Assembly: GCF_988243305.1 (NCBI RefSeq)
Contig: NZ_OZ547136.1
Direction: 5' to 3' (one strand)
DNA length: 64,000 nucleotides
The notes below the pieces were generated by a model. It saw only the letters and a program-made list of their open reading frames with translations. It ran no database searches and was not told where the DNA came from. Of the stretch, positions 7,681-64,000 are shown in pieces (position 1 is the first letter of the stretch; every line of letters starts with the position of its first letter). The translations under genes were made by a program, and so were the position numbers.

Positions 7681-8505
7681 TCACTGAGTCAGCCCAACAA
7701 AGCGGCCCGCCTTGATATAAATCCCAGGCTTCAGGTGCCCAACATACTGTAACTGCGTTTCTGGCTTAAACGCAGAGACATCGCCAGTACGCATATGCAT
7801 CAGATCGGCAGGGCTAATCCAGCCCGATTGCGCCAGTGTAAGTGGATGCCCGGCTTTGGCAAATGCATCAGTGACAAATTCCGAACAAAACCACGACTTT
7901 TTGTCTCCTTCGCCCACACTGCTTAACTGCGCTTTCGCCAGGCCGCTGACGCACTGTTGACGAAAATCCTCGGAGAACGGATTCAGTGAGCACATCTGGC
8001 GAGTTACCATAAAGGGAATAAATTCGACAATGCCGCGATAGTTGTAACCGCTATCTTTAATTTTGTTGGCGAACGCGGTGATTTCTGTGGCTTGTTGCGG
8101 GGTAAGATCCGGGACTCGTAGGACGAAAAGCTTATCGCTATGCTTCATCGCTTTTTTGAGGGAAACAATCTGGACGCCAGCGCCTGTCGCTTCTGCAACG
8201 TTATTTTCACCCAGATAGATTGCAACGTGACTCACAGAGGAAGTGCTGAAGACGCGGATTCCAAATGAGGTTACCCCATGGCTTGAGGAGAACAGCAAAT
8301 CGCCGGGTTTGAGATCAGGTTCCGTTATTTCTTTTATTGATTGTTCGGTAAAAGAGCTTTGATGCTGGAATTTGACTGCCCATGTTTTCGCCCCGGCATC
8401 TACCGCTGTGGCTGATGAGTCCGGCTGGCTGATATCTACGGTACAGGCCGAAAGGAAAAGAAAGCAGGGGAGAAGCAGGCGGCAATGCACCTTTGGTTTA
8501 TCCAT
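7681..8505 (-). CDS. yaeF: NlpC/P60-family lipoprotein
   Basis: 274 aa ORF with signal peptide and lipobox (FLSAC); expected position between nlpE and proS. Confidence 0.8.
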   Translation of the reverse strand: MDKPKVHCRLLLPCFLFLSACTVDISQPDSSATAVDAGAKTWAVKFQHQSSFTEQSIKEITEPDLKPGDLLFSSSHGVTSFGIRVFSTSSVSHVAIYLGENNVAEATGAGVQIVSLKKAMKHSDKLFVLRVPDLTPQQATEITAFANKIKDSGYNYRGIVEFIPFMVTRQMCSLNPFSEDFRQQCVSGLAKAQLSSVGEGDKKSWFCSEFVTDAFAKAGHPLTLAQSGWISPADLMHMRTGDVSAFKPETQLQYVGHLKPGIYIKAGRFVGLTQ

Positions 8506-8557
8506 TTTATACAGTCCATGTAAAAAAGGGCCCTGAAATTCAGGACCCTTTCTGGCA

Positions 8558-10276
8558 TCAGCCTTTAATCTGTTTCACCAGATATTCGACGATGTCACCA
8601 GTCTTAATTAACTGTTTCTCGCCGTTGCGACGATATTTATATTCGATATCGTCGTTGTCGAGGTTACGGTCGCCCAGCACAATAGTGTGCGGAATACCGA
8701 TCAGTTCCATATCAGCAAACATCACGCCCGGACGCTCTTTGCGGTCATCCAGCAGCACTTCGATACCCTGCGCGCGCAGTTCGCTGTACAGTTTCTCAGC
8801 AAGCTCCTGTACGCGGAAGGATTTGTGCATGTTCATCGGCAGAATCGCCACCTGGAACGGTGCGATAGCGTCAGGCCATACGATGCCGCGTTCGTCGTAG
8901 TTCTGCTCAATCGCCGCAGCTACTACACGCGTTACTCCGATACCGTAGCAACCCATCGTCAGGATTTGATTACGGCCATCTTCACCCTGTACGGAGGCTT
9001 TCAGTGCTTCGGAGTACTTGGTACCCAGCTGGAAGATGTGACCAACTTCGATACCACGTTTGATCAGCAGTGTACCCTGGCCATCCGGGCTTGGATCGCC
9101 CGCCACCACGTTACGGATATCAGCAATTTCCGGGGTAGCGACATCGCGATCCCAGTTGATACCGAAGTAGTGTTTACCATCGATGTTAGCACCAGCAGCG
9201 AAATCACTCATCGCTGCAACGGTACGGTCAATCACCACCGGAATCGGCATGTTTACCGGACCCAGTGAACCCGGACCGGCTTTAACCACGGCACGAATTT
9301 CTTCTTCGGTCGCGAAAGTCAGCGGGCTTGCAACCTGCGGCAGTTTTTCTGCTTTAACTTCGTTCAGCTCGTGGTCACCGCGCACCAGCAGCGCAACCAG
9401 CGGGAAGCTACTGCCTTCAACCGCTTTAACCAGCAGAGTCTTAACCGTTTTCTCAATCGGCAGATTGAACTGTTCAACCAGTTCCGCGATGGTCTTCGCG
9501 TTCGGCGTATCAACCAGCGTCATTTCCTGGGTAGCAGCAGCGCGCGGTTCTTTCGGCGCGATAGCTTCTGCCAGTTCAATGTTCGCTGCATAGTCAGAGG
9601 TGTCGGAGAAGACCACATCGTCTTCACCGCTCTGCGCCAGCACCTGGAATTCGTGAGAGGCGCTACCGCCGATAGAACCGGTGTCGGCCTGTACGGCGCG
9701 GAAATCCAGCCCCATGCGGCTGAAGATTTTGCTGTAGGCCGCATACATTGCATCGTAGGTTTCCTGCAGGGATTCCTGAGAAGTATGGAAAGAGTAAGCA
9801 TCTTTCATCAGGAATTCGCGGGAACGCATGACGCCGAAACGCGGACGCACTTCGTCGCGGAACTTGGTCTGGATCTGATAGAAGTTCAGCGGCAGCTGTT
9901 TGTAAGAGCTAAGCTCGTTACGAATCAGGTCTGTAATAACTTCTTCATGAGTTGGGCCGAGTACGAACGGACGCTCGCCACGGTCAACAAAACGCAGCAG
10001 TTCCGGACCGTACTGTTCCCAACGACCACTCTCTTGCCACAAATCGGCTGGCTGAACCACCGGCATCGACACCTCGATCGCACCGGCGTTGTTCATCTCT
10101 TCACGCACGATGTTTTCGACTTTTTTCAGAACGCGCACGCCGGTCGGCAGCCAGGTATATAACCCGGAGGCCAGCTTGCGGATCATCCCGGCGCGCAGCA
10201 TCAGCTGATGGCTGATCACCTCGGCGTCGGCAGGTGTCTCCTTGAGAGTGGAGAGCAGGTATTGGCTAGTACGCAT
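8558..10276 (-). CDS. proS: Prolyl-tRNA synthetase
   Basis: ORF 8558..10330; the internal start [20 protein letters not shown] gives about 572 aa; class II aaRS. Confidence 0.93.
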
Positions 10277-50474: not shown

Positions 50475-50993
50475 ATGCCAACCCCATGTTACATTTCTAT
50501 TACGGGCCAGACCCAGGGGAACATCACTGCCGGTGCTTTCACCGCGGATTCTGTCGGCAATATCTACGTGCAGGGGCACGAAGATGAAATGCTGGTGCAG
50601 GAGTTTTTGCACAACGTTACTGTTCCAACCGATCCGCAGTCTGGCCAGCCTTCCGGCCAGCGCGCGCACAAACCGTTCATTTTCACCGTGGCGCTGAACA
50701 AAGCCGTTCCGCTGCTGTACAACGCGCTGGCCTCCGGTGAAATGCTGCCGAAAGTGGAGCTGCACTGGTGGCGTACTTCAGTTGAAGGCAAGCAGGAGCA
50801 CTACTTCACCACACGTCTTACTGACGCGACGATTGTGGACATGAACCTGCACATGCCGCACTGCCAGGACCCTGCACAGCGTGAGTTTACGCAATTGCTC
50901 GCAGTATCACTGGCATACCGTAAGGTTGAGTGGGAGCACATCAAATCCGGTACTTCTGGTGCCGATGACTGGCGTGCACCGCTGGAAGCATAA
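50475..50993 (+). CDS. hcp: T6SS tube protein Hcp (TssD), canonical copy
   Basis: 172 aa from MPTPCYISITGQTQGNITAGAF with RBS AAGGAG; strong resemblance to the canonical Hcp as remembered from V. cholerae. Confidence 0.92.
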   Translation: MPTPCYISITGQTQGNITAGAFTADSVGNIYVQGHEDEMLVQEFLHNVTVPTDPQSGQPSGQRAHKPFIFTVALNKAVPLLYNALASGEMLPKVELHWWRTSVEGKQEHYFTTRLTDATIVDMNLHMPHCQDPAQREFTQLLAVSLAYRKVEWEHIKSGTSGADDWRAPLEA

Positions 50994-51213: not shown

Positions 51214-53196
51214 ATGTCCTTAAAAGGTCTGCGCTTTACGCTGGAGGTTGACGGCCAGGAGCCGGACACCTTTGCAGTGGTGAATTTCAGGTTAATCCAG
51301 AACCAGTCATATCCGTTTGTGATGAGTGTGGATGTTGCCAGCGACTCTTTTATGCAGACGGCGGAGATGCTGCTGGAGAAGAAGGCGACACTGACCATCT
51401 GGCAGGGCGCAGTGGCGCAGCGTTATGTCACCGGCGTGGTGGCGGGTTTTGGCATGCAGGAGAATAACGGCTGGCAGATGCGTTATCACCTGCGTATTGA
51501 GCCGCCGTTATGGCGGTGCGGGCTGCGGCAGAACTTCCGTATCTTCCAGCAGCAGGATATCCGGACGATATCGGCCACGTTACTGAACGAGAACGGCGTC
51601 ACGGAGTGGACGCCGCTGTTTTATGAGGACCATCCGGCGCGGGAGTTCTGTGTCCAGTACGGGGAGTCGGACCTGGCGTTTCTGTCCCGGCTGTGGGCGG
51701 AGGAGGGAATTTTCTTCTTTGAGCGGTTTGCGGCGGACAGTCCGGAGCAGAAGCTGACGCTGTGCGACGATGTGGCGGGGCTGTCACAGGCGGGAGAGCT
51801 TCCGTTTAACCCGGACACATCGACAGGAGCGGAGACGGAGTGTGTCAGTATGTTCCGTTATGAGGCGCATGTCCGCCCGTCGTCGGTGCAGAGCCAGGAT
51901 TACACGTTTAAGGTGCCGGACTGGCCGGGGATGTATGAGCAGCAGGGTGAGAACCTGAACGGACAGCTGGCGCAGTATGAGATATTTGATTATCCGGGAA
52001 GGTTCAAGGACGAGCAGCACGGCAAGGATTTCACGCTGTACCAGATGGGCAGCCTGCGCAGTGATGCGGAAAAGGCCACAGGGCAGAGTAATTCACCGAA
52101 GCTGTGGCCGGGAACGCAGTTTACGCTGACGGGGCATCCGCAGAAGATGCTGAACCGTGAATGGCAGGTGGTACAGAGCATACTGTCAGGAAGCCAGCCG
52201 CAGGCGCTGCACGGCAGCCAGGGGAGAGGAACCACGCTGGGAAATCAGTTAGAGGTGATACCGGCAGACCGGACGTGGCGTCCACGGCTGCAAAGCAAAC
52301 CGAAGGTGGACGGGCCACAGAGCGCCATTGTCACCGGGCCTGCGGGAGAGGAAATCTTCTGCGACGAACATGGCCGGGTACGGGTGAAGTTCCACTGGGA
52401 CCGTTATCACGGGATGACGGAGGCGAGTTCATGCTGGGTGCGGGTATCGCAGGCGTGGGCGGGGCCGGGTTTCGGCAATCTGGCGATACCGCGGGTGGGT
52501 CAGGAGGTGATTGTTGATTTCCTGAACGGCGACCCGGACCAGCCGATAATCATGGGACGGACATACCATGAGGACAACCGTTCGCCGGGGAGTCTGCCGG
52601 GGACGAAGACGCAGATGACGATACGGTCGAAGACCTATAAAGGAAGCGGATTTAACGAACTGCGCTTTGAGGACGCCACAGATAAGGAACAGGTCTATAT
52701 TCACGCGCAGAAGAACATGGATACGGAAGTGCTGAATGACCGGACGACGGACGTGAAGCATGACCACACGGAAACCATTGGTAACGACCAGAAGATAACG
52801 GTGGGGTTGGGCCAGACGGTGAATGTGGGGAGCAAAAAGGAAGGTGGTCATGACCAGAAAGTGACGGTAGCGAACGATCAGCATCTCACGATAAAAAATG
52901 ACCGGCACAAGGTTGTAAATAACAACCAGACAAGCAAGGTGACGGGAACTGATACCGAAGAAGTCGTCAAAAAACAGAGTATTAAAATAGGTGATAATTA
53001 CGAACTGAAAGTTGAGCATGGTACAAAAATCATATCTGGGGACAGTATTGAGCTAATTTGTGGGCAGGGAGAGAGCGGGACTTGTTCCATAAAACTGGAG
53101 AAAACAGGAAAGATAATAATACGGGGGACGGAGTTTCTATTTGAGGCTACCGGTCCTGTAGATATTAAAGGAAAAGATATTCATCTGAACGGATAG
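51214..53196 (+). CDS. vgrG: T6SS spike protein VgrG (TssI), no C-terminal toxin extension
   Basis: 660 aa; gp27/gp5-like VgrG; C-terminal repeats (HDQKVTVANDQHLTIKNDRHKV); the 3' about 350 nt are visibly AT-richer than the rest. Confidence 0.92.
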   Translation: MSLKGLRFTLEVDGQEPDTFAVVNFRLIQNQSYPFVMSVDVASDSFMQTAEMLLEKKATLTIWQGAVAQRYVTGVVAGFGMQENNGWQMRYHLRIEPPLWRCGLRQNFRIFQQQDIRTISATLLNENGVTEWTPLFYEDHPAREFCVQYGESDLAFLSRLWAEEGIFFFERFAADSPEQKLTLCDDVAGLSQAGELPFNPDTSTGAETECVSMFRYEAHVRPSSVQSQDYTFKVPDWPGMYEQQGENLNGQLAQYEIFDYPGRFKDEQHGKDFTLYQMGSLRSDAEKATGQSNSPKLWPGTQFTLTGHPQKMLNREWQVVQSILSGSQPQALHGSQGRGTTLGNQLEVIPADRTWRPRLQSKPKVDGPQSAIVTGPAGEEIFCDEHGRVRVKFHWDRYHGMTEASSCWVRVSQAWAGPGFGNLAIPRVGQEVIVDFLNGDPDQPIIMGRTYHEDNRSPGSLPGTKTQMTIRSKTYKGSGFNELRFEDATDKEQVYIHAQKNMDTEVLNDRTTDVKHDHTETIGNDQKITVGLGQTVNVGSKKEGGHDQKVTVANDQHLTIKNDRHKVVNNNQTSKVTGTDTEEVVKKQSIKIGDNYELKVEHGTKIISGDSIELICGQGESGTCSIKLEKTGKIIIRGTEFLFEATGPVDIKGKDIHLNG

Positions 53197-53302: not shown

Positions 53303-54349
53303 ATGATAGAAATGAAAAATAACACACCATTTCCTTTGTTGTCATTTGAAAAATATGGTCGTTATGGTCTTTTGTTTGATGTTATTGCTATTAAAATGTC
53401 ATTGCGAATTAAAAATGGATTTTATGCTGATCTTGCTGAGTTTCAAAAAGAATTGTCCATGTCTGATGAATACTATGGGGAGTCTGAAACAAGTAGTCTA
53501 AAATCTGAAACAGACTTAGTTCTTTGTAAAAGAAATACAGATATTCACGTGACAGGTAGTGCTCATGCCCCTCCAGGGGATAAGTCTAAGTGGAAGGCTT
53601 GTGTGAGGGTTAATAGTTTTTCTAAAGAACTGAGTTTATCTGGTGTCCGCTACTTACAATATGAGCGAAATCGTTGGCAGATGAGCTTACCAGATAAAAT
53701 TATTAATGTTCCTCTACGCTATGAGCTTGCTTACGGTGGTATTTGGCAACCAGATGGTATGGAGAAATTGGTTTTTTCAGCAAACCCTGTAGGTTGTGGA
53801 TATTATCCTGATATTTCTCAACTTAATACAAGTTGTCAATATAAACTCCCACAAATAACCAGCTCTGCTTTGTCAGAAAACGCTACCATTTTTAATGGGG
53901 AATCTGACTTTTTTCAAGGTGTTGGCCCTGTATCTCGATGGTGGAAAAGTCGCCTCCAGTATGCAGGAACCTACAATGAAGTATGGCGTGAAAAGCGCTA
54001 TCCCTATTTGCCGGATGATTTTGATGAGCGGTTCTACAATAGTGCTCATCCGGATATGATATACACGGGGTTTCTCTCTGGCGATGAAAACATCTCTCTT
54101 GAAGGTTTTTTTAAATTTGAACAGGTTGTTAAGACAAAATTGCCAGGTATACGACCTGTACTTATATTAAAAACCAAGCATAATACATCACATATGTTCT
54201 TACCTGTTGCGGATACAATGGTTATCGATTTAAGTCGACAGGAAATATACCTTACCTGGAGATTAACAATACCTGATTTTTTTGGAATGAAAGAAGGAGT
54301 GCTGAGTTGTATTATTCCTGAATGTATAGGGAAAAAATATTATGGGTAA
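53303..54349 (+). CDS. Putative T6SS adaptor protein (DUF2169-like)
   Basis: 348 aa AT-rich gene immediately downstream of vgrG and translationally coupled (8 nt overlap) to a PAAR-like effector gene, the canonical DUF2169 context; assignment is by context and size, not verified by search. Confidence 0.5.
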   Translation: MIEMKNNTPFPLLSFEKYGRYGLLFDVIAIKMSLRIKNGFYADLAEFQKELSMSDEYYGESETSSLKSETDLVLCKRNTDIHVTGSAHAPPGDKSKWKACVRVNSFSKELSLSGVRYLQYERNRWQMSLPDKIINVPLRYELAYGGIWQPDGMEKLVFSANPVGCGYYPDISQLNTSCQYKLPQITSSALSENATIFNGESDFFQGVGPVSRWWKSRLQYAGTYNEVWREKRYPYLPDDFDERFYNSAHPDMIYTGFLSGDENISLEGFFKFEQVVKTKLPGIRPVLILKTKHNTSHMFLPVADTMVIDLSRQEIYLTWRLTIPDFFGMKEGVLSCIIPECIGKKYYG

Positions 54350-55382
54350 CTATCATATCGGGGATGGTGAATGTAGATTTAGAGTCGTGTGTTCTTCACC
54401 AGATGTATGTGAAGTAGGAGGTTACAAGGTTCCTTTTGACAGTTACCAGACTTTAGATAGTGAAAGACAGTACAGTTCAACGGTATGGGCGCGTGGATGC
54501 AGAGCTTTAAATGTTGGTTCAGTGATTGCTGGAACTCAAAGTAATGCCGGTAAAGGTGTCATATCCGGTACATCTCAAGGAACGGGTGACTGTGTTATTT
54601 TAACGGGAAGTCCGACTGTAACAATAGAAGGGAAACCTGTTGCTTATCATGGTTCAGTTGTTGGGATTAATAACCATAACTGCCTTGGTAAATTGTATAC
54701 CAAAATAAAATCACCAATGATTTCTGTCATTGATAAAACTTTTAGTTATGAAAGGACTGCTGAAGTAATACACGATTTACTGCTTCTGAAGGATCTCCTT
54801 TCTGTTGGGAATATTTTGGGCGGAGATATTTCACCTGAGGTTAAAAATGATTTATTTCAAATAAAAGATCCTGACCAATCATGGGGGGAGTTTTTTTCAA
54901 TAAAGAATATCAGAGAATCTCTCAGGAATGGTATTGAAGGAGATAAATCTCAGATCAGAGAATGGTTTGGAGAGAACACACTTACTCAAATGGGCAATGG
55001 AGCAATCACCACTTTACATGGTGTGGCGGATTTAGCCTTAGTTACATTCGATGCTCTGTTAGATACGGCAACGGCAACGGTTGCTTGCCCGATAGGCGAA
55101 GATGGGTTATGTGAACAGGCAAATATAAATTTAAATGAAAAAGAACAGGCTTTATTTAATATTAGTAATTCATTGATAAATGGGCAAGCATGGGATGCAC
55201 TTAAAAAAATGATAATGGATACAAATAATGGTGATCAGATTGCTCTGGAGCATTTTGCCAGCTTTTTATGGGGCTTTATGATACCCGCAAAAATACCAGA
55301 AGAAAATATCTCTGGGAAAGTATTTGTAGAGCCAGTAGTTTTAGAAGGTGGTGCTGGTGGCAATTGGACAGTATTTGATTAG
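54342..55382 (+). CDS. PAAR-like (DUF4150-type) T6SS effector, N-terminal and linker portion; ends at an in-frame TAG
   Basis: 346 aa; N-terminal about 125 aa with the DUF4150-like pattern (GTGDCVILTGSPTVTIEGKPVAYHGSVVGINNHNCLG); helical central region; the stop TAG at 55380..55382 is in frame with the following toxin-like ORF. Confidence 0.6.
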   Translation: MGNYHIGDGECRFRVVCSSPDVCEVGGYKVPFDSYQTLDSERQYSSTVWARGCRALNVGSVIAGTQSNAGKGVISGTSQGTGDCVILTGSPTVTIEGKPVAYHGSVVGINNHNCLGKLYTKIKSPMISVIDKTFSYERTAEVIHDLLLLKDLLSVGNILGGDISPEVKNDLFQIKDPDQSWGEFFSIKNIRESLRNGIEGDKSQIREWFGENTLTQMGNGAITTLHGVADLALVTFDALLDTATATVACPIGEDGLCEQANINLNEKEQALFNISNSLINGQAWDALKKMIMDTNNGDQIALEHFASFLWGFMIPAKIPEENISGKVFVEPVVLEGGAGGNWTVFD

Positions 55383-55409
55383 GTTTTAGATTCAAATGTA
55401 ATAAAGCAA

Positions 55410-55781
55410 TTGACTTTAACAGGCTGTGGAGCGGCCTGTGGGGAAATGTTGCTTAGGGATAGGTATATTTTTGTCACGCAAAATGTAATTGGAACAGAAT
55501 TAACATCTATGACGTCGCTGGCAAACAAGCTTAATAAATTTGATGTCGGCTGGGAAGGGAATGAAGTGAGCGAATCTAGTTTATATGCCCTCAGTAATAC
55601 TGGTTCATGGGGAGCAATGATGTGGGATTCTGGAAGTAAAGTAGGGCATTGGGTACTTGTTAAGGGTGTTGATGATGCTGGGAATGTGATAATATATGAT
55701 CCATATCAAGGGAGTCGATATCTGATGACTGAACAGGAATTTAAGGAGGTATGGAATGGGCATAGTGTTTACAAACCATAA
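55410..55781 (+). pseudogene. Papain/C39-like cysteine-peptidase toxin domain, in frame with the upstream PAAR ORF (split by one TAG codon)
   Basis: 123 codons with no ATG or RBS before the putative catalytic Cys (GCGAACGEMLL); His (GHWVLVKG) and Asp (DDAGNVIIYDP) complete a papain-like Cys-His-Asp order reminiscent of peptidase C39; continuous with ORF 54342..55382 except for one TAG. Confidence 0.45.
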
Positions 55782-56046
55782 TATTGATTTGTTATCGGTT
55801 GAATTTGATGAGATTACAAAAAATTGTAATTACACTTTTAGTGTAGATGGAGAGACGGCTATCTTTACTGCTAGAATATCAATAATAAGAAATATAAAGG
55901 GAATTAAATATAGCGAAGAACTTGATAAATTTATAATGTCAATAATGCCATTGCAGCCTAAAGTATCAAAAATTTTGGGAGGTGTTACTTGGGATTGTAT
56001 TTGTGGTAAGGAAGTTGGATTTCCTGTGAGATTAATTGGTAAGTGA
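55756..56046 (+). CDS. Candidate cognate immunity protein (cytoplasmic)
   Basis: 96 aa; strong RBS AAGGAGG 7 nt before the ATG; overlaps the last 26 nt of the toxin-domain ORF; no signal peptide. Confidence 0.5.
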   Translation: MGIVFTNHNIDLLSVEFDEITKNCNYTFSVDGETAIFTARISIIRNIKGIKYSEELDKFIMSIMPLQPKVSKILGGVTWDCICGKEVGFPVRLIGK

Positions 56047-56284
56047 AGGGTGGTGAGGTATTTCTATATTTTTTTTCGTGAAAGTCTTTAAAACTAAAAT
56101 TATCTTGTTGGGAGCCCAAGGTGAGATCATAAAACGTATTATTTTATAAATATTGTTATGCAGGGAAAGGTCAAGTAATGCTGCTTTTTTGTACTAAATA
56201 ATTCGCATTTTATGTTCAATAATTGAGGTGTTCCTTATTACCTAAAGCTGTTTTTCATTGCTTATACATGATCAAATACTCATT

Positions 56285-57130
56285 GCATAATTAAGGGGGC
56301 AAAATGGAACTTAAAAAATTGATGGAACATATTTCTGTTATCCCCGATTACAGGCAAGCCTGGAAAGTGGAACATAAATTGCCAGATATTCTATCTGTTA
56401 ACTATTTGCGCCGTTATTTCTGGTGCATAAGGCTGGGAAGATATAGAGGATTTGGGGAAACACATCTCGATTTTTTGAAGTGATATGGTGATTTTGAAAA
56501 TGGTATTCCTGTTCACGATATCATTGCCAGAGTTGTATCCTGTATCAGTCCTGCAAAATTTTACGAGTGCTTTATTAACTGGATGCGTGACTGTCATTCT
56601 TCAGATGATAAAGACATCATCGCAATTGATGGAAAAACGCTCCGGCACTCTTATGATAAAAGTCGTCAAAAGGGAGCAATTTATGTCATTAAAATCCGTC
56701 TTCATATTGTTTGCATGTCTCTGATGAATTTATTGATTTTACGTTTGAATGGAAAGGGCTGAAGAAATTATGCATGGCAGTCTCATTTCGCTCAATAATA
56801 GCAGAACAAAAGAAAAATCCCGAAATGACGGTCAGATATTATAGCATTTCTGCTGATTTAACCGCAGAGAAGTTCGCCACAGCGAACCGAAATCACTGGC
56901 AAGTGGAGAATAAATTGCACTGGCATCTGGACGTGGTAATGAATAAAGACGACTTCAAAATAAGAAGAGGAAATGCAGCAGAATTATTTTCAGGGATACG
57001 GAAGATCGCTATTAATATTTTAACGAAAGATAAGATAATCAAGGCAGGGGCAAGATGTAAGATGTGAAAAGCAGCTGCGGACAGAGACTACCTCGCGTCA
57101 GTCCTTGCGGGGGCGGGCTTTCGTAATCTT
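56285..57130 (+). pseudogene. ISAs1-family (H-repeat-associated) transposase, degenerate: frameshifts plus internal deletion
   Basis: Segments matching the N-terminus ([26 protein letters not shown]...GETHLDFLK), middle ([10 protein letters not shown]...[19 protein letters not shown]) and C-terminus ([12 protein letters not shown]...[18 protein letters not shown]...[20 protein letters not shown]) of H-repeat transposases in different frames, with about 120 codons missing from the middle. Confidence 0.75.
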
Positions 57131-57295
57131 GTTCTGCAAGGGATGATAAAAAGTGCAACTTTATTCCACGCAGCTATTTAGACAGCGTACAGTAAACAAA
57201 CGAAAGTTGTTATTTCAATGGTCAGGGCAAGAGCATGAAGTGTTTACTACACACTATGCTCTTGTCCTGGAGTCAGGTCTTGTCTGGAGGGATAA

Positions 57296-57799
57296 ATGGT
57301 AGATATTGTCGAGGCCGATAAAACGGATATTTATTTCATTCAGGAGAGTGTTTATGGCAAAATCGGGTTGCCAGCTTTGGGTAATACAATAGGACCATCC
57401 GCACAGCAAGTTGTTAAAAAGGTATTCGCTGTCGTTAAAGAACGAGATAAGACACATGCAAAACAGAGATTATTGTTGGAATATAATGGTAACAAACTCT
57501 GGATGAATGCTATTGATGGCAGTGAAGCTATCCTACCAACAGAATTTTCTAAGCGGTACGAACTTTCATTATTCAATACTACTAATTTTGGAGAAGATCC
57601 TTTTCCTGATGTTAATTTATATAATAATATGAAATCAAGTTTTTTTGTAAGGTTTGGTGGAACATCCCATCCCGAGGCTTGGGCTATTTATAATGCAAGT
57701 ACGAAAGAGGTTAAATATATAGAAACTGCAAGAGAAATTGATAAAATATTCAGTGATTTTAACTTGAGTGGTACATTGCCAATTCACATTGGTCAATGA
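57296..57799 (+). CDS. Hypothetical protein (cysteine-free, no signal peptide)
   Basis: 167 aa ORF with strong RBS (GGAGGG) 6 nt upstream; AT-rich; between the two ISAs1 fragments; no recognisable family. Confidence 0.45.
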   Translation: MVDIVEADKTDIYFIQESVYGKIGLPALGNTIGPSAQQVVKKVFAVVKERDKTHAKQRLLLEYNGNKLWMNAIDGSEAILPTEFSKRYELSLFNTTNFGEDPFPDVNLYNNMKSSFFVRFGGTSHPEAWAIYNASTKEVKYIETAREIDKIFSDFNLSGTLPIHIGQ

Positions 57800-57864
57800 T
57801 TTTTAAATTGTGTGATTAAATAATTGAACATTAATGATGATTTATAGCATCATTATTCTATAAC

Positions 57865-58377
57865 ATGAATAAACGGATTGAATGTGTTATGTTAAAAATG
57901 AGTTTATACGTAATAATATTGTTATTTTCCTTTCAGATTAGTGCAGCCATTACTAGCAAGGAAAGTGAGGTTGTTTCACCATTATTAATGGATGTTAATT
58001 CTTCACTAACAATGGAAAATATATCTGAATTATCCACATCATCGGAACCATCGCAACAGGGGGTATTTCCTGTAATATGTACTCGACTTCATCCTGGCTC
58101 CGTAATGAAACGCCAGTTATTAACCGGCTGGGGGCCTGTTTTTATAATTGGTGATGATCCTTTTTCTCTGCGCTGGATGAGTGAACATCTGGAGATCCTT
58201 AAATCGCTAAATGCCCTTGGTTTGGTTGTTAATGTTGAATCAGTAGAACGAATGGAGGTATTACAGCAGCGGGCTGATGGGTTATTGTTATTGCCAGTTA
58301 TCTGCGATAATTTCGTGCAAACTCTGCAATTAAATGCTTATCCGGTATTAATCACAGAGATGGAAATATCACAATGA
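57865..58377 (+). CDS. Hypothetical exported protein (signal peptide)
   Basis: 170 aa ORF with N-terminal signal-like segment (MLKMSLYVIILLFSFQISAAITS); AT-rich; no recognisable family. Confidence 0.45.
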   Translation: MNKRIECVMLKMSLYVIILLFSFQISAAITSKESEVVSPLLMDVNSSLTMENISELSTSSEPSQQGVFPVICTRLHPGSVMKRQLLTGWGPVFIIGDDPFSLRWMSEHLEILKSLNALGLVVNVESVERMEVLQQRADGLLLLPVICDNFVQTLQLNAYPVLITEMEISQ

Positions 58378-58394
58378 TTAATAACATAATTACT

Positions 58395-58640
58395 GCAAAT
58401 AATATCGTAATTTTGAAAATGGTAATCCTGTTCACGACACCATAATTAGAGTTATGTCTTGTATCCGTTCAGTATAATTTCACGAATGCTTTATTAACTG
58501 GATGCGAGATTGCCATTCATCAAATGATAAAGACGTCATCGCAATTGATGGAAAAGCGCTTCCACACTCCTATGATAAAAGTGGTCGCAGGAGAGCGGGC
58601 TTTCGTAGTCATACCCCGACTCTCCCCAGCCCTAAACACA
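58395..58640 (+). pseudogene. yafF: ISAs1-family (H-repeat) transposase fragment, second copy (yafF-like remnant)
   Basis: About 220 bp direct repeat of 56490..56700 encoding FENGNPVHDTI...[35 protein letters not shown], adjacent to yafV. Confidence 0.7.
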
Positions 58641-58648
58641 ACCCCCAC

Positions 58649-59428
58649 TCACCACAACCTAAACTCATCCGCATCCCGCCATGCCGGAAACTTTTCTCTA
58701 TACTCCCGCAACGCCATCATCGACAGCTCCGCATCAATGCGCGTTGCCTGATGCGCGTCGGCAGTAGCGATAATCTCGCCTTGCGGATTAATCACCCGGC
58801 TGTCACCACGATAATGGCAGCCGTTGCCATCGCTGCCGACGCGATTGCATCCCGCCACATACGCCTGATTCTCAATCGCGCGGGCTGTCAGCAATGCCTG
58901 CCAGTGCAGAGAGCGCGGAGCAGGCCAGTTGGCGACGTACAGGGCGAGGTCATAATCGTTGAGATTGCGCGACCACACCGGAAAACGTAAGTCGTAGCAC
59001 ACCAGCGGCAAAATACGCCAGCCGCGCCATTCCACAATCACTCGCGCATTGCCCGCTTTATAATGTAGATGCTCATCTGCCATGCGGAACAGATGACGCT
59101 TATCATAAAAATGTACCGTGCCGCCCGGCTCAACCAGCAAAAAGCGGTTAACCGAACCAGACTCCGTTTGTAATGCAACACTGCCTGCAATCAGCGCATT
59201 GCACTGCTGCGCTTTGGCTGTCATCCAGTTCACTACGTCATCTTGTGCTAGCGACGAAGCTGCCGCTTCCATGGCAAAGCCGCTGGTAAACATCTCCGGT
59301 AGAACGATCACATCGCGTCCGGTAATACCTTCCAGTTGACGATCAAAATGACGCAGGTTGGCAGGACCATCCATCCACACCAGTGGTTGCTGCAAAAGCG
59401 TAATCTTCAAACCAGGCACGGTGTACAA
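58649..59428 (-). CDS. yafV: Omega-amidase (nitrilase/CN-hydrolase family)
   Basis: 259 aa ORF with carbon-nitrogen hydrolase features (catalytic-Cys region LVCYDLRFP); core-genome position before ivy. Confidence 0.85.
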
Positions 59429-59572
59429 CTCCTTTATGCGAAGGGTTTTATAACTTTAACACCTTATCAGGCAGTTGCCTTAGCGCAGAATAAATTGATA
59501 ACAAATGCTGATATTGGAAATATCTGATTTGCAAATTATCGTGTTATCGCCAGGCTTTAGGAGGTTAATAAC

Positions 59573-60046
59573 ATGGGCAGGATAAGCTCGGGAGGAATGA
59601 TGTTTAAGGCAATAACGACAGTCGCCGCTCTGGTCATCGCCACCAGTGCAATGGCGCAGGATGATTTAACCATTAGCAGCCTTGCAAAGGGCGAAACCAC
59701 CAAAGCTGCGTTTAATCAGATGGTGCAAGGGCATAAGCTACCTGCATGGGTGATGAAAGGCGGTACTTATACTCCCGCACAAACCGTAACGTTGGGAGAT
59801 GAGACGTATCAGGTGATGAGCGCGTGCAAACCGCATGACTGTGGCTCGCAACGTATCGCTGTGATGTGGTCCGAGAAATCTAATCAGATGACGGGGCTGT
59901 TCTCGACTATTGATGAGAAAACGTCGCAAGAGAAACTCACCTGGTTGAATGTGAACGATGCGCTTTCGATTGATGGTAAAACGGTGCTGTTCGCGGCGTT
60001 GACCGGCAGCCTGGAAAACCATCCGGATGGCTTTAATTTTAAATAA
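59573..60046 (+). CDS. ivy: Inhibitor of vertebrate lysozyme (periplasmic)
   Basis: 157 aa ORF with signal peptide (VAALVIATSAMAQDD) and CKPHDC loop motif. Confidence 0.88.
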   Translation: MGRISSGGMMFKAITTVAALVIATSAMAQDDLTISSLAKGETTKAAFNQMVQGHKLPAWVMKGGTYTPAQTVTLGDETYQVMSACKPHDCGSQRIAVMWSEKSNQMTGLFSTIDEKTSQEKLTWLNVNDALSIDGKTVLFAALTGSLENHPDGFNFK

Positions 60047-60057
60047 TTAGCGGATAA

Positions 60058-60088
60058 AGAAACGGAGCCTTTCGGCTCCGTTATTCAA
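60058..60088. terminator. Bidirectional terminator between convergent ivy and fadE
   Basis: aaacggagcctttcggctccgtt hairpin with flanking A/T runs. Confidence 0.65.
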
Positions 60089-62533
60089 TTACGCGGCTTC
60101 AACTTTCCGCACTTTCTCCGGCAACTTTACCGGCTTCGTCGCCAGCTCTTCCGGATCAAAGTCATCAACGTTAATACTGCGCAGACGGCTTTCTTCAGCT
60201 TTCACCAGAATAGCGGCTTCATCTTTATCAATCAGCCCCTTCGCCAGCGCGTTATGCGCCAGTTCATCCAGACGGGTAAACGGCAGGTTTTTACCCAGCT
60301 CTTTACAGATCCGCTGATGAATTGGGTCGGCGGCAATCACATCCACCAGCGCCTCTTCCAGTAAGCCAACCGGGTTATGCTCGCTCGGCGTCAGGTACTG
60401 ACCGCGACCAATACGTGAACGGGTGGCGTTCGGCACTTGTAAAATCTTCGCCACCTTATGATCCAGCTTGTCAGAAGGTGCCAGATAATGACGTCCGGTC
60501 GGGAAGATCACCACATTCAGCAGCCCGGCAACCACGCGGTTCGGGAAGTTTTGCAGTAAATCATCCATCGCCTGTTCAGCCTGATACAGCGCATCCTGTA
60601 CGCCCCAGTGCACCAGCGGCAGGTCGGCTTCATTACGGCCTTCGTCGTCATAACGCTTCAGAACGGCAGAGGCGAGGTAAAGCTGGCTTAAAATATCCCC
60701 CAGACGTGCCGAGATACGCTCACGACGTTTCAGGCTGCCGCCCAGCACAGCCATCGAGACATCAGAAAGCAGGGCGAGGTTGGCGCTCAGGCGGTTCAGG
60801 TGCTGATAGTAGCGTTTAGTGGCATCGCCGGTTGGCGTGCTGCTGGTTAAACCGCGCGTCAGGCCCAGCCAGAAGCTGCGAACTTTGTTGCTACCGACGT
60901 GACCGATATGTTTAAACAGGAGTTTATCGAACGCGTTGACGTCATTGTTCTTCGCCGCTTCCATCTCTTCCAGCACGTACGGATGGCAACGAATCGCTCC
61001 TTGTCCGAAGATCATCATGCTGCGGGTCAGAATGTTAGCCCCTTCAACGGTGATGGCAATCGGCGCGCCCTGGTAAGCACGCGCCAGGAAGTTGCTCTGC
61101 CCGAGCATAATGCCTTTGCCACCAGTGATATCCATCGCATCAATAATCGACTGCTGCCCGCGGTGGGTACAGTGATACTTAACGATAGCCGACAGCACGG
61201 CAGGTTTTTCACCGAGCATAATGCCGTAGGTAATCAGCGATGCCGCAGCATCCATTACATAAGCGTTTCCGGCAATACGCGCCAGCGGCTCTTCAATCCC
61301 TTCCATCTTACCAATAGAGATTTTGAACTGACGGCGGATGTGCGCATACGCACCCGTTGCCAGCGCTACCGATTTCACGCCGCCGGTTGAGTTGGAAGGC
61401 AGGGTGATACCGCGGCCTACCGAGAGGCACTCCACCAGCATCCGCCAGCCTTGCCCGGCCATTTTTGGTCCGCCGATAATGTAATCGATCGGTACGAAGA
61501 CATCTTTACCGCGCGTCGGTCCGTTCTGGAACGGCACGTTCAGCGGGAAGTGGCGACGACCAATTTCCACGCCCGGCGTGGTAGTCGGGATCAGCGCACA
61601 GGTAATACCTAAATCTTCTGCACCGCCGAGTAATTTCTCCGGGTCGGAGAGTTTAAACGCCAGCCCAAGCACGGTCGCAATCGGTGCGAGCGTAATGTAA
61701 CGTTTGTTCCAGGTCAGACGCATCCCCAGCACCTGCTGGCCCTGCCATTCCCCCATGCAGACAATCCCGGTGTCCGGAATCGCGCCCGCATCGGAACCCG
61801 CTTCCGGGCTGGTCAGTGCAAAGCAAGGGATTTCCTGACCACGCGCCAGACGCGGCAGATAGTGATCTTTCTGCTCGTCAGTGCCGTAATGTTGCAGTAG
61901 CTCACCCGGGCCTAATGAGTTTGGCACGCCGACGGTAATCGCCAGGATCCCGCTCACGCCGGAGAGTTTTTGCAGCACGCGAGACTGGGCATAAGCCGAG
62001 AACTCCAGCCCGCCGTACTCTTTTTTGATGATCATCGCGAAGAAACGATGCTCTTTAAGGTACGCCCACAACTCCGGCGGCAAATCAGCCAGCTCATGAG
62101 TAATCTGGAAATCATTCGCCATCCGGCAGGCTTCTTCTACCGGGCCGTCGAGAAACGCTTGCTCTTCTGCGGTCAGGCGCGGCTGCGGATAGTTATGCAG
62201 CTTTTTCCAGTCCGGCTTGCCCTGGAACAAGTCGCCCTCCCACCATGTGGTGCCTGCGTCGATCGCTTCTTTCTCAGTGCGCGACATCGGCGGCATCACC
62301 TTACGGAAGCCGCGAAATACCGGCGCGGAAATCATCGACTTACGCATAGGCGCAAAGTTAAATGGCACGAGGATAATGGCCAGAGGCACCAGTACCCACG
62401 CCGACCACAGACCAGCAACGCCGAGGGCGGCTGTCCAGGCGAGCAAAATCAGACTGCTGATAAATAAGCTCACGCGGTGATAGAACAACGCGCCGAGCAG
62501 GACAACCGTAGCGAGAATACTCAAAATCATCAT
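60089..62533 (-). CDS. fadE: Acyl-CoA dehydrogenase
   Basis: ORF 60089..62611; the internal start [18 protein letters not shown] gives 814 aa; acyl-CoA dehydrogenase domains. Confidence 0.92.
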
Positions 62534-62772
62534 AACGAAAAGCCCCTTACTTGTAGGAGGTCTGACCACTTGTGATGATATGGTTGTAGTGGATGTAAAA
62601 ACATTTAGCAATGTGTTTACAATATAATTACAACAAAGCTCACATTGTTGCTGTTTTTATCCGCACTTCAGGTCAAAAAGTCCTGGTCATAGCACCTGCC
62701 CGTACTTCTCGCTTTTGGCGGTATCCGGTACACTGCATTTTGTCTATTACATTTATGCTGAAGGATATCCTC

Positions 62773-63351
62773 ATGTACCAGGATCTTATTCGTAACGAAC
62801 TGAACGAAGCGGCGGAAACGCTGGCTAACTTTTTAAAAGATGACGCCAATATTCACGCCATTCAGCGCGCGGCGGTCCTGTTAGCAGACAGCTTTAAAGC
62901 CGGTGGCAAAGTGCTTTCCTGCGGCAACGGCGGCTCCCATTGCGACGCTATGCACTTTGCCGAAGAGTTGACCGGTCGCTACCGTGAAAACCGTCCGGGC
63001 TACCCGGCGATTGCCATTTCTGACGTTAGTCATATTTCCTGCGTCGGTAACGATTTTGGTTTCAATGATATTTTCTCCCGTTACGTTGAAGCGGTAGGTC
63101 GCGAAGGCGATGTACTGCTGGGGATCTCCACCTCCGGTAACTCTGCAAACGTGATCAAAGCGATCGCGGCGGCGCGTGAGAAGGGGATGAAAGTGATCAC
63201 CCTGACCGGTAAAGACGGCGGTAAAATGGCTGGCACAGCGGATATCGAAATTCGCGTACCGCACTTTGGTTATGCCGACCGCATTCAGGAGATCCACATT
63301 AAAGTTATCCATATCCTGATCCAGTTAATTGAAAAAGAGATGGTTAAGTAA
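62773..63351 (+). CDS. gmhA: Sedoheptulose 7-phosphate isomerase
   Basis: 192 aa from [20 protein letters not shown] domain ([15 protein letters not shown]); the tracked ORF start at 62611 is an upstream extension. Confidence 0.92.
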
Positions 63352-63360
63352 GTCTGGCGT

Positions 63361-63400
63361 AGGCCGAATAATGCGTTTACGCCGCATCCGACCTGAAAAT
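63361..63400. repeat. REP-like palindromic element after gmhA
   Basis: taggccgaataa..gcgtttacgccgcatccgac: imperfect palindrome of REP type. Confidence 0.4.
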
Positions 63401-63454
63401 ACTTAAATCAATCTTCGCCGGGGGCCATGCGCTCCCGCTGTTGTGGAGGTTACC

Positions 63455-64000
63455 CATGTGCGAATTGCTCGGGATGAGCGCCAACGTCCCTACCGATATC
63501 TGCTTTAGTTTCACCGGTCTGGTGCAGCGTGGTGGTGGAACCGGGCCACATAAAGATGGCTGGGGCATTACCTTTTACGAAGGTAAAGGCTGTCGCACAT
63601 TTAAAGATCCGCAACCCAGCTTTAATTCCCCCATCGCCAAACTTGTCCAGGACTACCCGATAAAATCCTGTTCGGTGGTGGCTCATATTCGCCAGGCGAA
63701 TCGGGGCGAGGTGGCGCTGGAAAATACTCACCCGTTTACCCGCGAGTTATGGGGGCGTAACTGGACTTATGCCCATAACGGACAACTGACGGGGTACAAA
63801 TCACTGGAAACCGGCAACTTCCGCCCGGTCGGTGAAACCGACAGCGAAAAAGCCTTCTGCTGGCTCCTGCATAAATTAACGCAGCGTTACCCGCGCACAC
63901 CGGGCAACATGGCGGCAGTGTTTAAATATATCGCCTCACTGGCGGATGAACTGCGGCAGAAGGGCGTTTTCAACATGCTGCTTTCTGACGGGCGCTATGT
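63455..64000 (+). CDS. yafJ: Class II glutamine amidotransferase-like protein, 5' part (runs off window)
   Basis: Begins [15 protein letters not shown] with the catalytic Cys at position 2 as in Ntn-type amidotransferases; open to the window end. Confidence 0.8.

Follow-up and report, generated by a model that had tools for sequence, protein, structure and literature searches.

A candidate effector-immunity gene pair with a DUF2859 partner at the distal end of the Escherichia coli T6SS-1 island

Here, we examined two adjacent genes, denoted ORF1 and ORF2 (ORF, open reading frame), at positions 57296-58377 of a 64,000-nucleotide (nt) stretch of Escherichia coli DNA (contig NZ_OZ547136.1, RefSeq assembly GCF_988243305.1), hereafter the window. 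The pair sits at the effector (distal) end of the island encoding type VI secretion system 1 (T6SS-1), between remnants of ISAs1-family insertion sequences (IS) and beside yafV. The first-pass annotation, which was made from the sequence alone, had likewise placed it at the effector end of a T6SS island between IS remnants. With moderate confidence, we propose that ORF1 and ORF2 are a T6SS-1 cargo effector and its periplasmic immunity protein. The first-pass annotation considered such a pairing plausible, and it is the best supported of the explanations weighed below, on contextual grounds, namely, the conservation of the pair across alleles, the predicted topology of the two proteins, the linkage of a relative of ORF1 to hcp, and the position of other relatives beside genes for polytopic membrane proteins, as seen for known small T6SS cargo effectors. 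Its other suggestion, that both genes might encode immunity proteins, is not supported because the relatives of ORF1 are never found downstream of a toxin gene.

ORF1 (57296-57799, plus strand) encodes a protein of 167 amino acids (aa; 18.9 kDa, pI 5.6), and ORF2 (57865-58377, plus strand) encodes one of 170 aa if read from its first ATG, the positions and lengths originally annotated. Both are genuine coding genes, given that PGAP annotates each of them and that the ratios of nonsynonymous to synonymous substitution rates (dN/dS) lie between 0.16 and 0.50. Pairwise comparison of four alleles, those of the window, Escherichia whittamii (L022), a divergent E. coli type (L002/L029) and a metagenomic contig (L020), places ORF1 (dN/dS 0.16-0.30) as well as ORF2 (0.27-0.50) under purifying selection. 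Furthermore, open reading frames of this length are unlikely to arise by chance in DNA as AT-rich as this (35.1% GC in ORF1 and 37.6% in ORF2 versus 51.3% in the window). This composition had been noticed before, as had the complete lack of cysteine in ORF1. The ribosome-binding sites, by contrast, are good only in the case of ORF1, in which a strong Shine-Dalgarno sequence, GGAGGG (57286-57291), precedes the ATG by 5 nt. The first ATG of ORF2, at 57865, has no such sequence, and the ATG at 57889, which is the start chosen by PGAP and in the other alleles and is likely the true one (162 aa), has a weak one.

The two proteins differ in their predicted location in a way that fits an effector and its periplasmic antidote. 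Neither a signal peptide nor a transmembrane (TM) segment was found in ORF1 by inspection of the sequence and Kyte-Doolittle analysis, so that the protein is predicted to be cytoplasmic. Conversely, ORF2 starts with the clear signal peptide that the first-pass annotation had pointed out, a Sec-type leader (57889-57945, plus strand; MLKMSLYVIILLFSFQISA) with predicted cleavage between ISA and A (next residues, AI) and no lipobox cysteine. The only hydrophobic segment of ORF2 in the Kyte-Doolittle profile spans residues 1-24. On these grounds, ORF1 is a candidate T6SS cargo effector and ORF2 a candidate periplasmic immunity protein.

The pairing of ORF1 with a DUF2859 protein, the family to which ORF2 belongs, is specific to Escherichia, where a short-form ORF1 and its DUF2859 neighbor are kept adjacent in three diverged alleles, each at the distal end of T6SS-1. 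Identity to the window type is 100, 68 and 58% for ORF1 and 100, 75 and 49% for ORF2. The window type is also present in E. whittamii (95% identity in ORF1 and 90% in ORF2), the 68%/75% allele was found in 12 complete E. coli genomes, and the 58%/49% allele occurs on metagenomic contigs, directly after a PAAR gene and without any IS. Thus, the candidate effector and immunity genes are co-inherited and diverge together, and they remain neighbors at the T6SS-1 terminus with or without IS; both observations support the effector-immunity assignment. In the window and at loci L001, L029, L036 and L020/21, the pair is the last module of the island and is nearly constant, whereas the effector modules upstream differ among strains. 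Among 5,426 complete E. coli genomes, ORF1 is present in 559 and ORF2 in 757, and a T6SS-1 core marker (tssG/tagH) in 549, about 10%; the nearly equal numbers for ORF1 and the secretion system are again as expected of a T6SS-1 substrate. In sampled genomes, ORF1 lies 12-20 kb from the T6SS-1 core, and its carriers include strains UTI89, 536, F11, APEC (avian pathogenic E. coli) O18 and BEN2908.

Natural variants provide a further view of the pair. About 200 genomes contain ORF2 but are missing ORF1. In the two genomes of this class that were sampled, ORF2 is a pseudogene with a frameshift and a stop codon, no T6SS gene is present in the 9 kb upstream, and the island is replaced by a type I secretion system (T1SS)/adhesin locus with an IS630 remnant. 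In strain LP5-1, which has lost the entire T6SS-1 island, IS1 interrupts ORF2, and ORF1 remains intact. In strain KC-Dl-1, T6SS-1 and ORF2 are intact, and a 1-nt deletion in a run of seven T (57640-57646, plus strand, in the window) frameshifts ORF1, truncating the product to 117 aa. In this small sample, ORF2 was lost only where the T6SS is absent, whereas ORF1 was lost with ORF2 retained, and the pattern is, therefore, the one predicted for an effector acting in the periplasm and its immunity protein. These variants are compatible with our proposal without being decisive. The idea that the ORF2-only genomes reflect selection for an orphan immunity gene was rejected because both sampled copies carry the frameshift and stop, and a cytoplasmic toxin-antitoxin logic is unlikely given that ORF2 is exported and that its disruption is tolerated beside an intact ORF1 in LP5-1. 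A 127-kb record labeled as plasmid pCP127 of E. coli EC93 (NZ_CP061330.1) holds the ORF2 pseudogene and a T1SS/adhesin locus, together with the chromosomal core genes yafV, ivy, fadE, gmhA, yafJ and dpaA; either a piece of chromosome was assigned wrongly here, or the replicon is a very unusual one.

ORF1 had been described as an orphan, and searches of Pfam, NCBIfam, PADLOC and PHROG indeed gave no match, but the label is overstated. A word-indexed search with ORF1 returned matches from E. coli only, whereas an exhaustive hidden Markov model search of 1.84 billion representative sequences recovered 36 relatives that define a family of about 190 aa. The family is common in Serratia marcescens and extends to other enterics (Yersinia pseudotuberculosis, Y. 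pestis, Erwinia, Pantoea, Rouxiella, Rahnella, Morganella, Cedecea, Citrobacter koseri and Enterobacter) as well as to Burkholderia, Marinobacterium and Halopseudomonas; all members are annotated as hypothetical. An alignment of 18 sequences shows six positions that are invariant in the full-length members (E17, G99, D101, P102, L108 and Y109), and in the same comparison ORF1 is short by about 30 residues that every other member carries, that is, it is a short-form representative of this uncharacterized family. Structure prediction, one of the checks proposed at the outset, yielded a confident model but no similar solved structure. With an alignment of 3 sequences, the AlphaFold (AF2) model of ORF1 was unusable (pLDDT 39.5), and it became informative only once distant homologs were added (pLDDT 86.8). 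The predicted fold consists largely of beta structure; it contains two short helices, and the protein lacks hydrophobic segments. Comparison of the model with structures in the PDB identified no solved neighbor, its matches in afdb50 were uncharacterized family members only, and sequence and profile searches of the PDB returned nothing for either protein. No amidase, muramidase or lipase motif or fold was detected in ORF1 by Pfam and structure comparison.

The first-pass annotation had proposed to search the genomic surroundings of homologs for hcp, vgrG or rhs genes. An orphan hcp precedes the gene of the closest full-length relative, P0008 (38-40% identical to ORF1), by 15 nt, and an ORF with 3 TM segments converges on it; most of the other relatives lack T6SS neighbors within 8 kb. 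In Erwinia, Pantoea, Yersinia, Rouxiella and further metagenome-derived contigs, the gene downstream of the family gene encodes a 142-157-aa protein with 4 TM segments and usually overlaps it by 4 nt; a gene for a DUF805 membrane protein comes third. These three-gene cassettes are inserted at differing core loci, with T6SS genes absent from the surrounding 8 kb. In Morganella, a two-gene version lies between can and hpt. Overall, the partners outside Escherichia are either 142-157 aa long with 4 TM segments or 92-108 aa long with 3-4 TM segments. PADLOC and PHROG searches with the pair and the cassette partners produced nothing significant, the only hit being a weak match of P0008 to a Cas8b model (E=0.0078). 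Two further members deserve mention. Salmonella Senftenberg NCTC10384 (NZ_LN868946.1, positions 7900-8790) carries a decayed, frameshifted family gene in the interval between sseK1, a type III secretion system effector gene, and rpoC, with a convergent 108-aa membrane ORF homologous to the one facing P0008; the record is labeled a plasmid yet bears rpoBC and the thi operon. Protein P0160 (MBI3898006.1, 292 aa), from a gammaproteobacterial metagenome-assembled genome (MAG), joins the family domain (residues 1-170) to a TM-rich C-terminal part similar to the 4-TM partner that is normally encoded separately. The fusion could be genuine, or it could be an artefact of a frameshift at the place where the two genes normally overlap by 4 nt.

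ORF2, by contrast, does match a known family, contrary to the first-pass annotation. It scores 120.6 bits against NCBIfam model TIGR03765, twice the curated cutoff of 59.75, covering the entire 105-position model, and matches Pfam PF11072 (DUF2859) with E=2.4e-28; the domain occupies positions 58039-58365 (plus strand; residues 59-167 of the 170-aa form). Judging by its sequence, ORF2 clearly belongs to this TIGR03765/DUF2859 (PFL_4695) family of periplasmic proteins from the conjugation modules of integrating and conjugative elements (ICE) of the PFGI-1/ICEclc/PAPI-1 type, and PGAP, accordingly, names it 'integrating conjugative element protein'. The closest relatives outside Escherichia come from ICEs of Salmonella and Citrobacter (46-55% identity). 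ORF2 and the ICE copies share the same architecture, a signal peptide (the Citrobacter and Salmonella leaders are equivalent) and, behind a variable linker, a domain of about 105 aa at the C-terminus, and the ICE and plasmid homologs align with ORF2 over the domain only. In the Salmonella and Citrobacter ICEs, the gene order is SLT-type lytic transglycosylase, DUF2859, TraD, DtrJ-like, RAQPRD and onward to TraC. ORF2 lacks such a setting between a transglycosylase gene and traD, and because no conjugation gene occurs within 20 kb of it in the window or the other alleles, it is a member of the sequence family outside the usual system of DUF2859. Our literature searches found no published function for DUF2859/PFL_4695, and likewise nothing functional on DUF805 or on T6SS in combination with yafV; one report cites DUF2859 only as a hotspot boundary marker (PMC12629846). 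In the Citrobacter and Salmonella ICEs inspected (L016-L019), DUF2859 always follows the gene for an exported SLT-type lytic transglycosylase of 174-176 aa, upstream of which lies a gene whose exported product of about 228 aa carries a CxxC motif, and this constant adjacency hints that DUF2859 may cooperate with, or restrain, the transglycosylase. The possibility that ORF1 is a diverged copy of this transglycosylase gene was rejected, as BLASTP detected no similarity.

Under the scenario that we favor, ORF1 would be loaded into the T6SS-1 tube, most likely through Hcp, in view of its size and of the hcp-linked relative P0008, and injected into the periplasm of neighboring cells, where it would attack the cell envelope. 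The most probable target would be the inner membrane because the partner gene in every other lineage encodes a protein with 3-4 TM segments, although we hold this part with less confidence than the pairing itself. ORF2 would be exported by the Sec pathway into the periplasm of the producer and its kin, where it would bind and neutralize incoming ORF1. Within the T6SS-1 lineage of Escherichia, immunity would have passed to a DUF2859 protein acquired from the conjugation module of an enterobacterial ICE, a takeover that would coincide with the loss of about 30 residues from ORF1. Secretion, toxicity, target and neutralization are all properties that we infer. In its strongest form, this scenario would have DUF2859 repurposed as the immunity protein of a T6SS toxin with a new fold, replacing an ancestral polytopic membrane immunity protein, which we regard as a tentative and rather improbable extension. 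If it were correct, DUF2859 would natively be a periplasmic binder or inhibitor, perhaps controlling the adjacent ICE lytic transglycosylase, and the ORF1 family would be a new class of envelope-targeting effectors with a range covering Enterobacterales and Burkholderia, among them Serratia, Yersinia pestis and extraintestinal pathogenic E. coli (ExPEC).

The periplasm-acting T6SS pairs Tae/Tai, Tge/Tgi and Tle/Tli have an immunity protein that is exported through Sec. ORF1 and ORF2 resemble them in that the gene for a candidate effector without a signal peptide is followed by one for an exported candidate immunity protein and in their location at the variable effector end of a T6SS cluster, but differ in that ORF1 lacks amidase, muramidase or lipase motifs and folds and in that the immunity candidate belongs to a conjugation-system family; among these pairs, Tle1/Tli1 of E. 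coli is cited in PMC6889166. The size of ORF1, 18.9 kDa, falls within the range of known Hcp-dependent effectors (PMC4924876), which is consistent with the proposed mode of delivery. Among such small Hcp-dependent cargo effectors, Ssp6 and Ssp4 of Serratia marcescens act on the inner membrane from the periplasm, form ion-selective pores, contain no recognizable domain and are countered by the membrane immunity proteins Sip6 and Sip4 (PMC6889166, PMC12669606). Genes of this type form small insertions away from the T6SS, sometimes beside an orphan hcp or within the T6SS cluster, and the immunity gene lies directly downstream, in many cases overlapping the effector gene by 4 nt. Sip4, which is encoded in a three-gene insertion, resides in the inner membrane and has 4 TM segments (PMC6889166, PMC12669606). 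The ORF1 family shares all these genomic features, a likeness that rests on gene layout. By contrast, Ssp4 is predicted to be mainly alpha-helical, with 13 helices, and to have TM helices (PMC12669606), whereas the ORF1 model is beta-rich without a hydrophobic segment, and Sip6 is a 67-aa protein with 2 TM helices (PMC6889166), as opposed to partners of 92-157 aa with 3-4 TM segments or, in E. coli, a DUF2859 protein. Another domain-less Serratia cargo effector, Tfe1 (Ssp3), is an orphan of 183 aa and 20 kDa that depolarizes membranes and has reported homologs in Enterobacterales, Burkholderiales and Pseudomonadales (PMC6617251), a range that overlaps with that of the ORF1 family. Compared by description, Tfe1 differs from it, being 183 aa long and having the small sip3 partner upstream, whereas the Serratia member of the ORF1 family is 193 aa long (22.0 kDa) and has a 4-TM partner downstream; both Ssp6 and Tfe1/Ssp3 are set apart by gene order and sizes (PMC6617251, PMC6889166).

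Several observations weigh against the effector-immunity assignment. In the PDB and afdb50 comparisons, ORF1 matched no known toxin fold or catalytic motif. The proteins closest to ORF2 belong to the conjugation modules of ICEs and are not immunity proteins, a switch of immunity type inside one effector family would be unusual, and ORF2 in genomes lacking ORF1 is a pseudogene, not a maintained orphan immunity gene. Outside Escherichia, only one relative of ORF1 is linked to T6SS, and T6SS genes are absent from the 8-10 kb around each of the other eight distinct sites examined. The P0160 protein, if real, would suggest that the partners form a complex in the same cell rather than act as toxin and antidote. 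The first-pass annotation held that homologs consistently placed outside T6SS contexts and endowed with housekeeping functions would refute its proposal. The close homologs of ORF2 do reside in ICE modules and most relatives of ORF1 have no T6SS gene within 8 kb, but a housekeeping role is assigned in neither case. Conversely, T6SS adjacency is provided by the position of the pair in the island and by P0008 behind its orphan hcp, and an orphan location, such as that of most other relatives, is usual for cargo effectors of the Hcp type (PMC6889166).

Alternatively, the two genes could be unrelated neighbors, with ORF1 an orphan and possibly disabled short-form effector without its former membrane partner, and ORF2 stranded from a decayed ICE, the two having been joined by IS-mediated rearrangement and persisting only through linkage to the end of the island. 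The ISAs1 copies on both sides of the pair in the window, the affinity of ORF2 to genuine ICE proteins, the residues missing from ORF1, and the ORF1 frameshifts, IS1 insertions in ORF2 and ORF2 pseudogenes of natural strains are all in line with such an origin. However, the adjacency has outlasted divergence to 58%/49% identity and persists in three alleles, of which one is free of IS, dN/dS is well under 1 for both genes, ORF2 is without any other ICE gene in every allele, and the short form of ORF1 is still predicted to adopt a confident fold, so that we consider chance neighborhood unlikely. We are similarly doubtful of a functional two-gene module unrelated to T6SS delivery, for instance, with a role in the envelope, stress or defense, in which ORF1-family proteins act with membrane or periplasmic partners inside one cell, the location at the end of the island being historical. 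Most family members belong to three-gene cassettes far from T6SS genes that behave as small mobile insertions, and the MAG protein fuses the family domain to a TM region, as such a module might. Against this, ORF1 is predicted to be cytoplasmic and ORF2 periplasmic, so that the two would not meet in the same cell unless ORF1 were exported; PADLOC detected no significant match for any component; one relative is tightly linked to hcp; and the genome counts of ORF1 and T6SS-1 are nearly equal.

A final alternative retains T6SS delivery and makes ORF1 either a substrate not aimed at bacteria, such as an antifungal or anti-eukaryotic effector of the Tfe1 kind, or an accessory or adaptor protein, with ORF2 no true immunity protein. 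Tfe1 is a similarly small orphan effector without a recognizable domain, for which the neighboring 'immunity' gene is dispensable (PMC6617251), the ORF1 family is common in the species that produces it, and disruption of ORF2 is tolerated in LP5-1. The last point loses its force because LP5-1 has no T6SS and is, thus, uninformative on immunity. Moreover, the small upstream partner of Tfe1 contrasts with the downstream 4-TM partner of the Serratia family member, and partner genes are conserved in every lineage, which makes this explanation highly improbable.

If ORF1 and ORF2 are, as we favor, an effector-immunity pair, they would represent a new effector family, with no known fold, in a clinically important lineage, given that about one in ten complete E. 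coli genomes contains the T6SS-1 island with the pair, model strains of ExPEC and APEC among them. The assignment would also offer the first functional handle on the homologs of about 190 aa in Serratia, Yersinia, Pantoea, Morganella and Burkholderia, and the first functional clue to the conserved ICE protein DUF2859.

The DNA of the window is from E. coli and carries yafV, ivy, fadE and gmhA at 58649-64000. On the upstream side lies the aspV-yafV T6SS-1 island, which comprises tssGFECB, hcp at about 50475-50993 and one vgrG (51214-53196), followed by DUF2169, a DUF4150 PAAR-like gene, a C39-like ORF and a 96-aa ORF. The left ISAs1-family (H-repeat) element (56160-57137, plus strand) is degenerate and annotated by PGAP as a pseudogene; when aligned with the intact 1.29-kb ISAs1 copies in L022 (E. 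whittamii) and L029, it shows an internal deletion of about 312 bp at 56691/56692, frameshifts and stops. The right fragment (58397-58597, plus strand), about 200 bp from the middle of the transposase gene, abuts yafV and is a remnant at a position where the divergent allele has a full-length element. Two ISAs1 copies bracket the pair in the window as well as in E. whittamii, a single one lies downstream in L029, and L020/21 lack the element; the idea that the pair is cargo of an ISAs1 composite transposon was rejected because the IS positions vary among alleles and one allele is IS-free. Homology between the window and L029 spans exactly 57255-58377, a shared DNA module that starts with a leader (57255-57295, plus strand) kept in the divergent allele and including the Shine-Dalgarno sequence of ORF1. 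Between the ISAs1 end and this conserved module, an inverted repeat (16 + 4 bp) forms a predicted, very stable stem-loop (57222-57270, plus strand; -33.7 kcal/mol, z = -4.28) that lies 26 nt upstream of the ORF1 ATG. It has no U-tract behind it and no Rfam match, and is not conserved in the divergent allele; Rfam gave no match over 56000-58800, and promoter-like sites are no more common than in shuffled sequence.

The neighboring specialized effector gene (54342-55781) is split in the window by a nonsense codon at 55380-55382. Here, the 346-aa DUF4150 PAAR-like ORF ends in TVFD and a stop, and the C39-like peptidase domain continues in frame, whereas the KC-Dl-1 equivalent is a single 479-aa protein (TVFDEVLDSN); the effector is, therefore, probably inactive in the window strain. 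The 96-aa putative immunity gene of this effector (55756-56046) is still present. Upstream of the pair in L002, L022 and L029, a trio of genes recurs, with products that are WD40/beta-propeller-like (about 340 aa), 411-414 aa long without further description, and thioredoxin-like (137-139 aa), respectively. In several strains, this trio stands after a PAAR-like toxin and may be a multi-gene immunity or accessory set.

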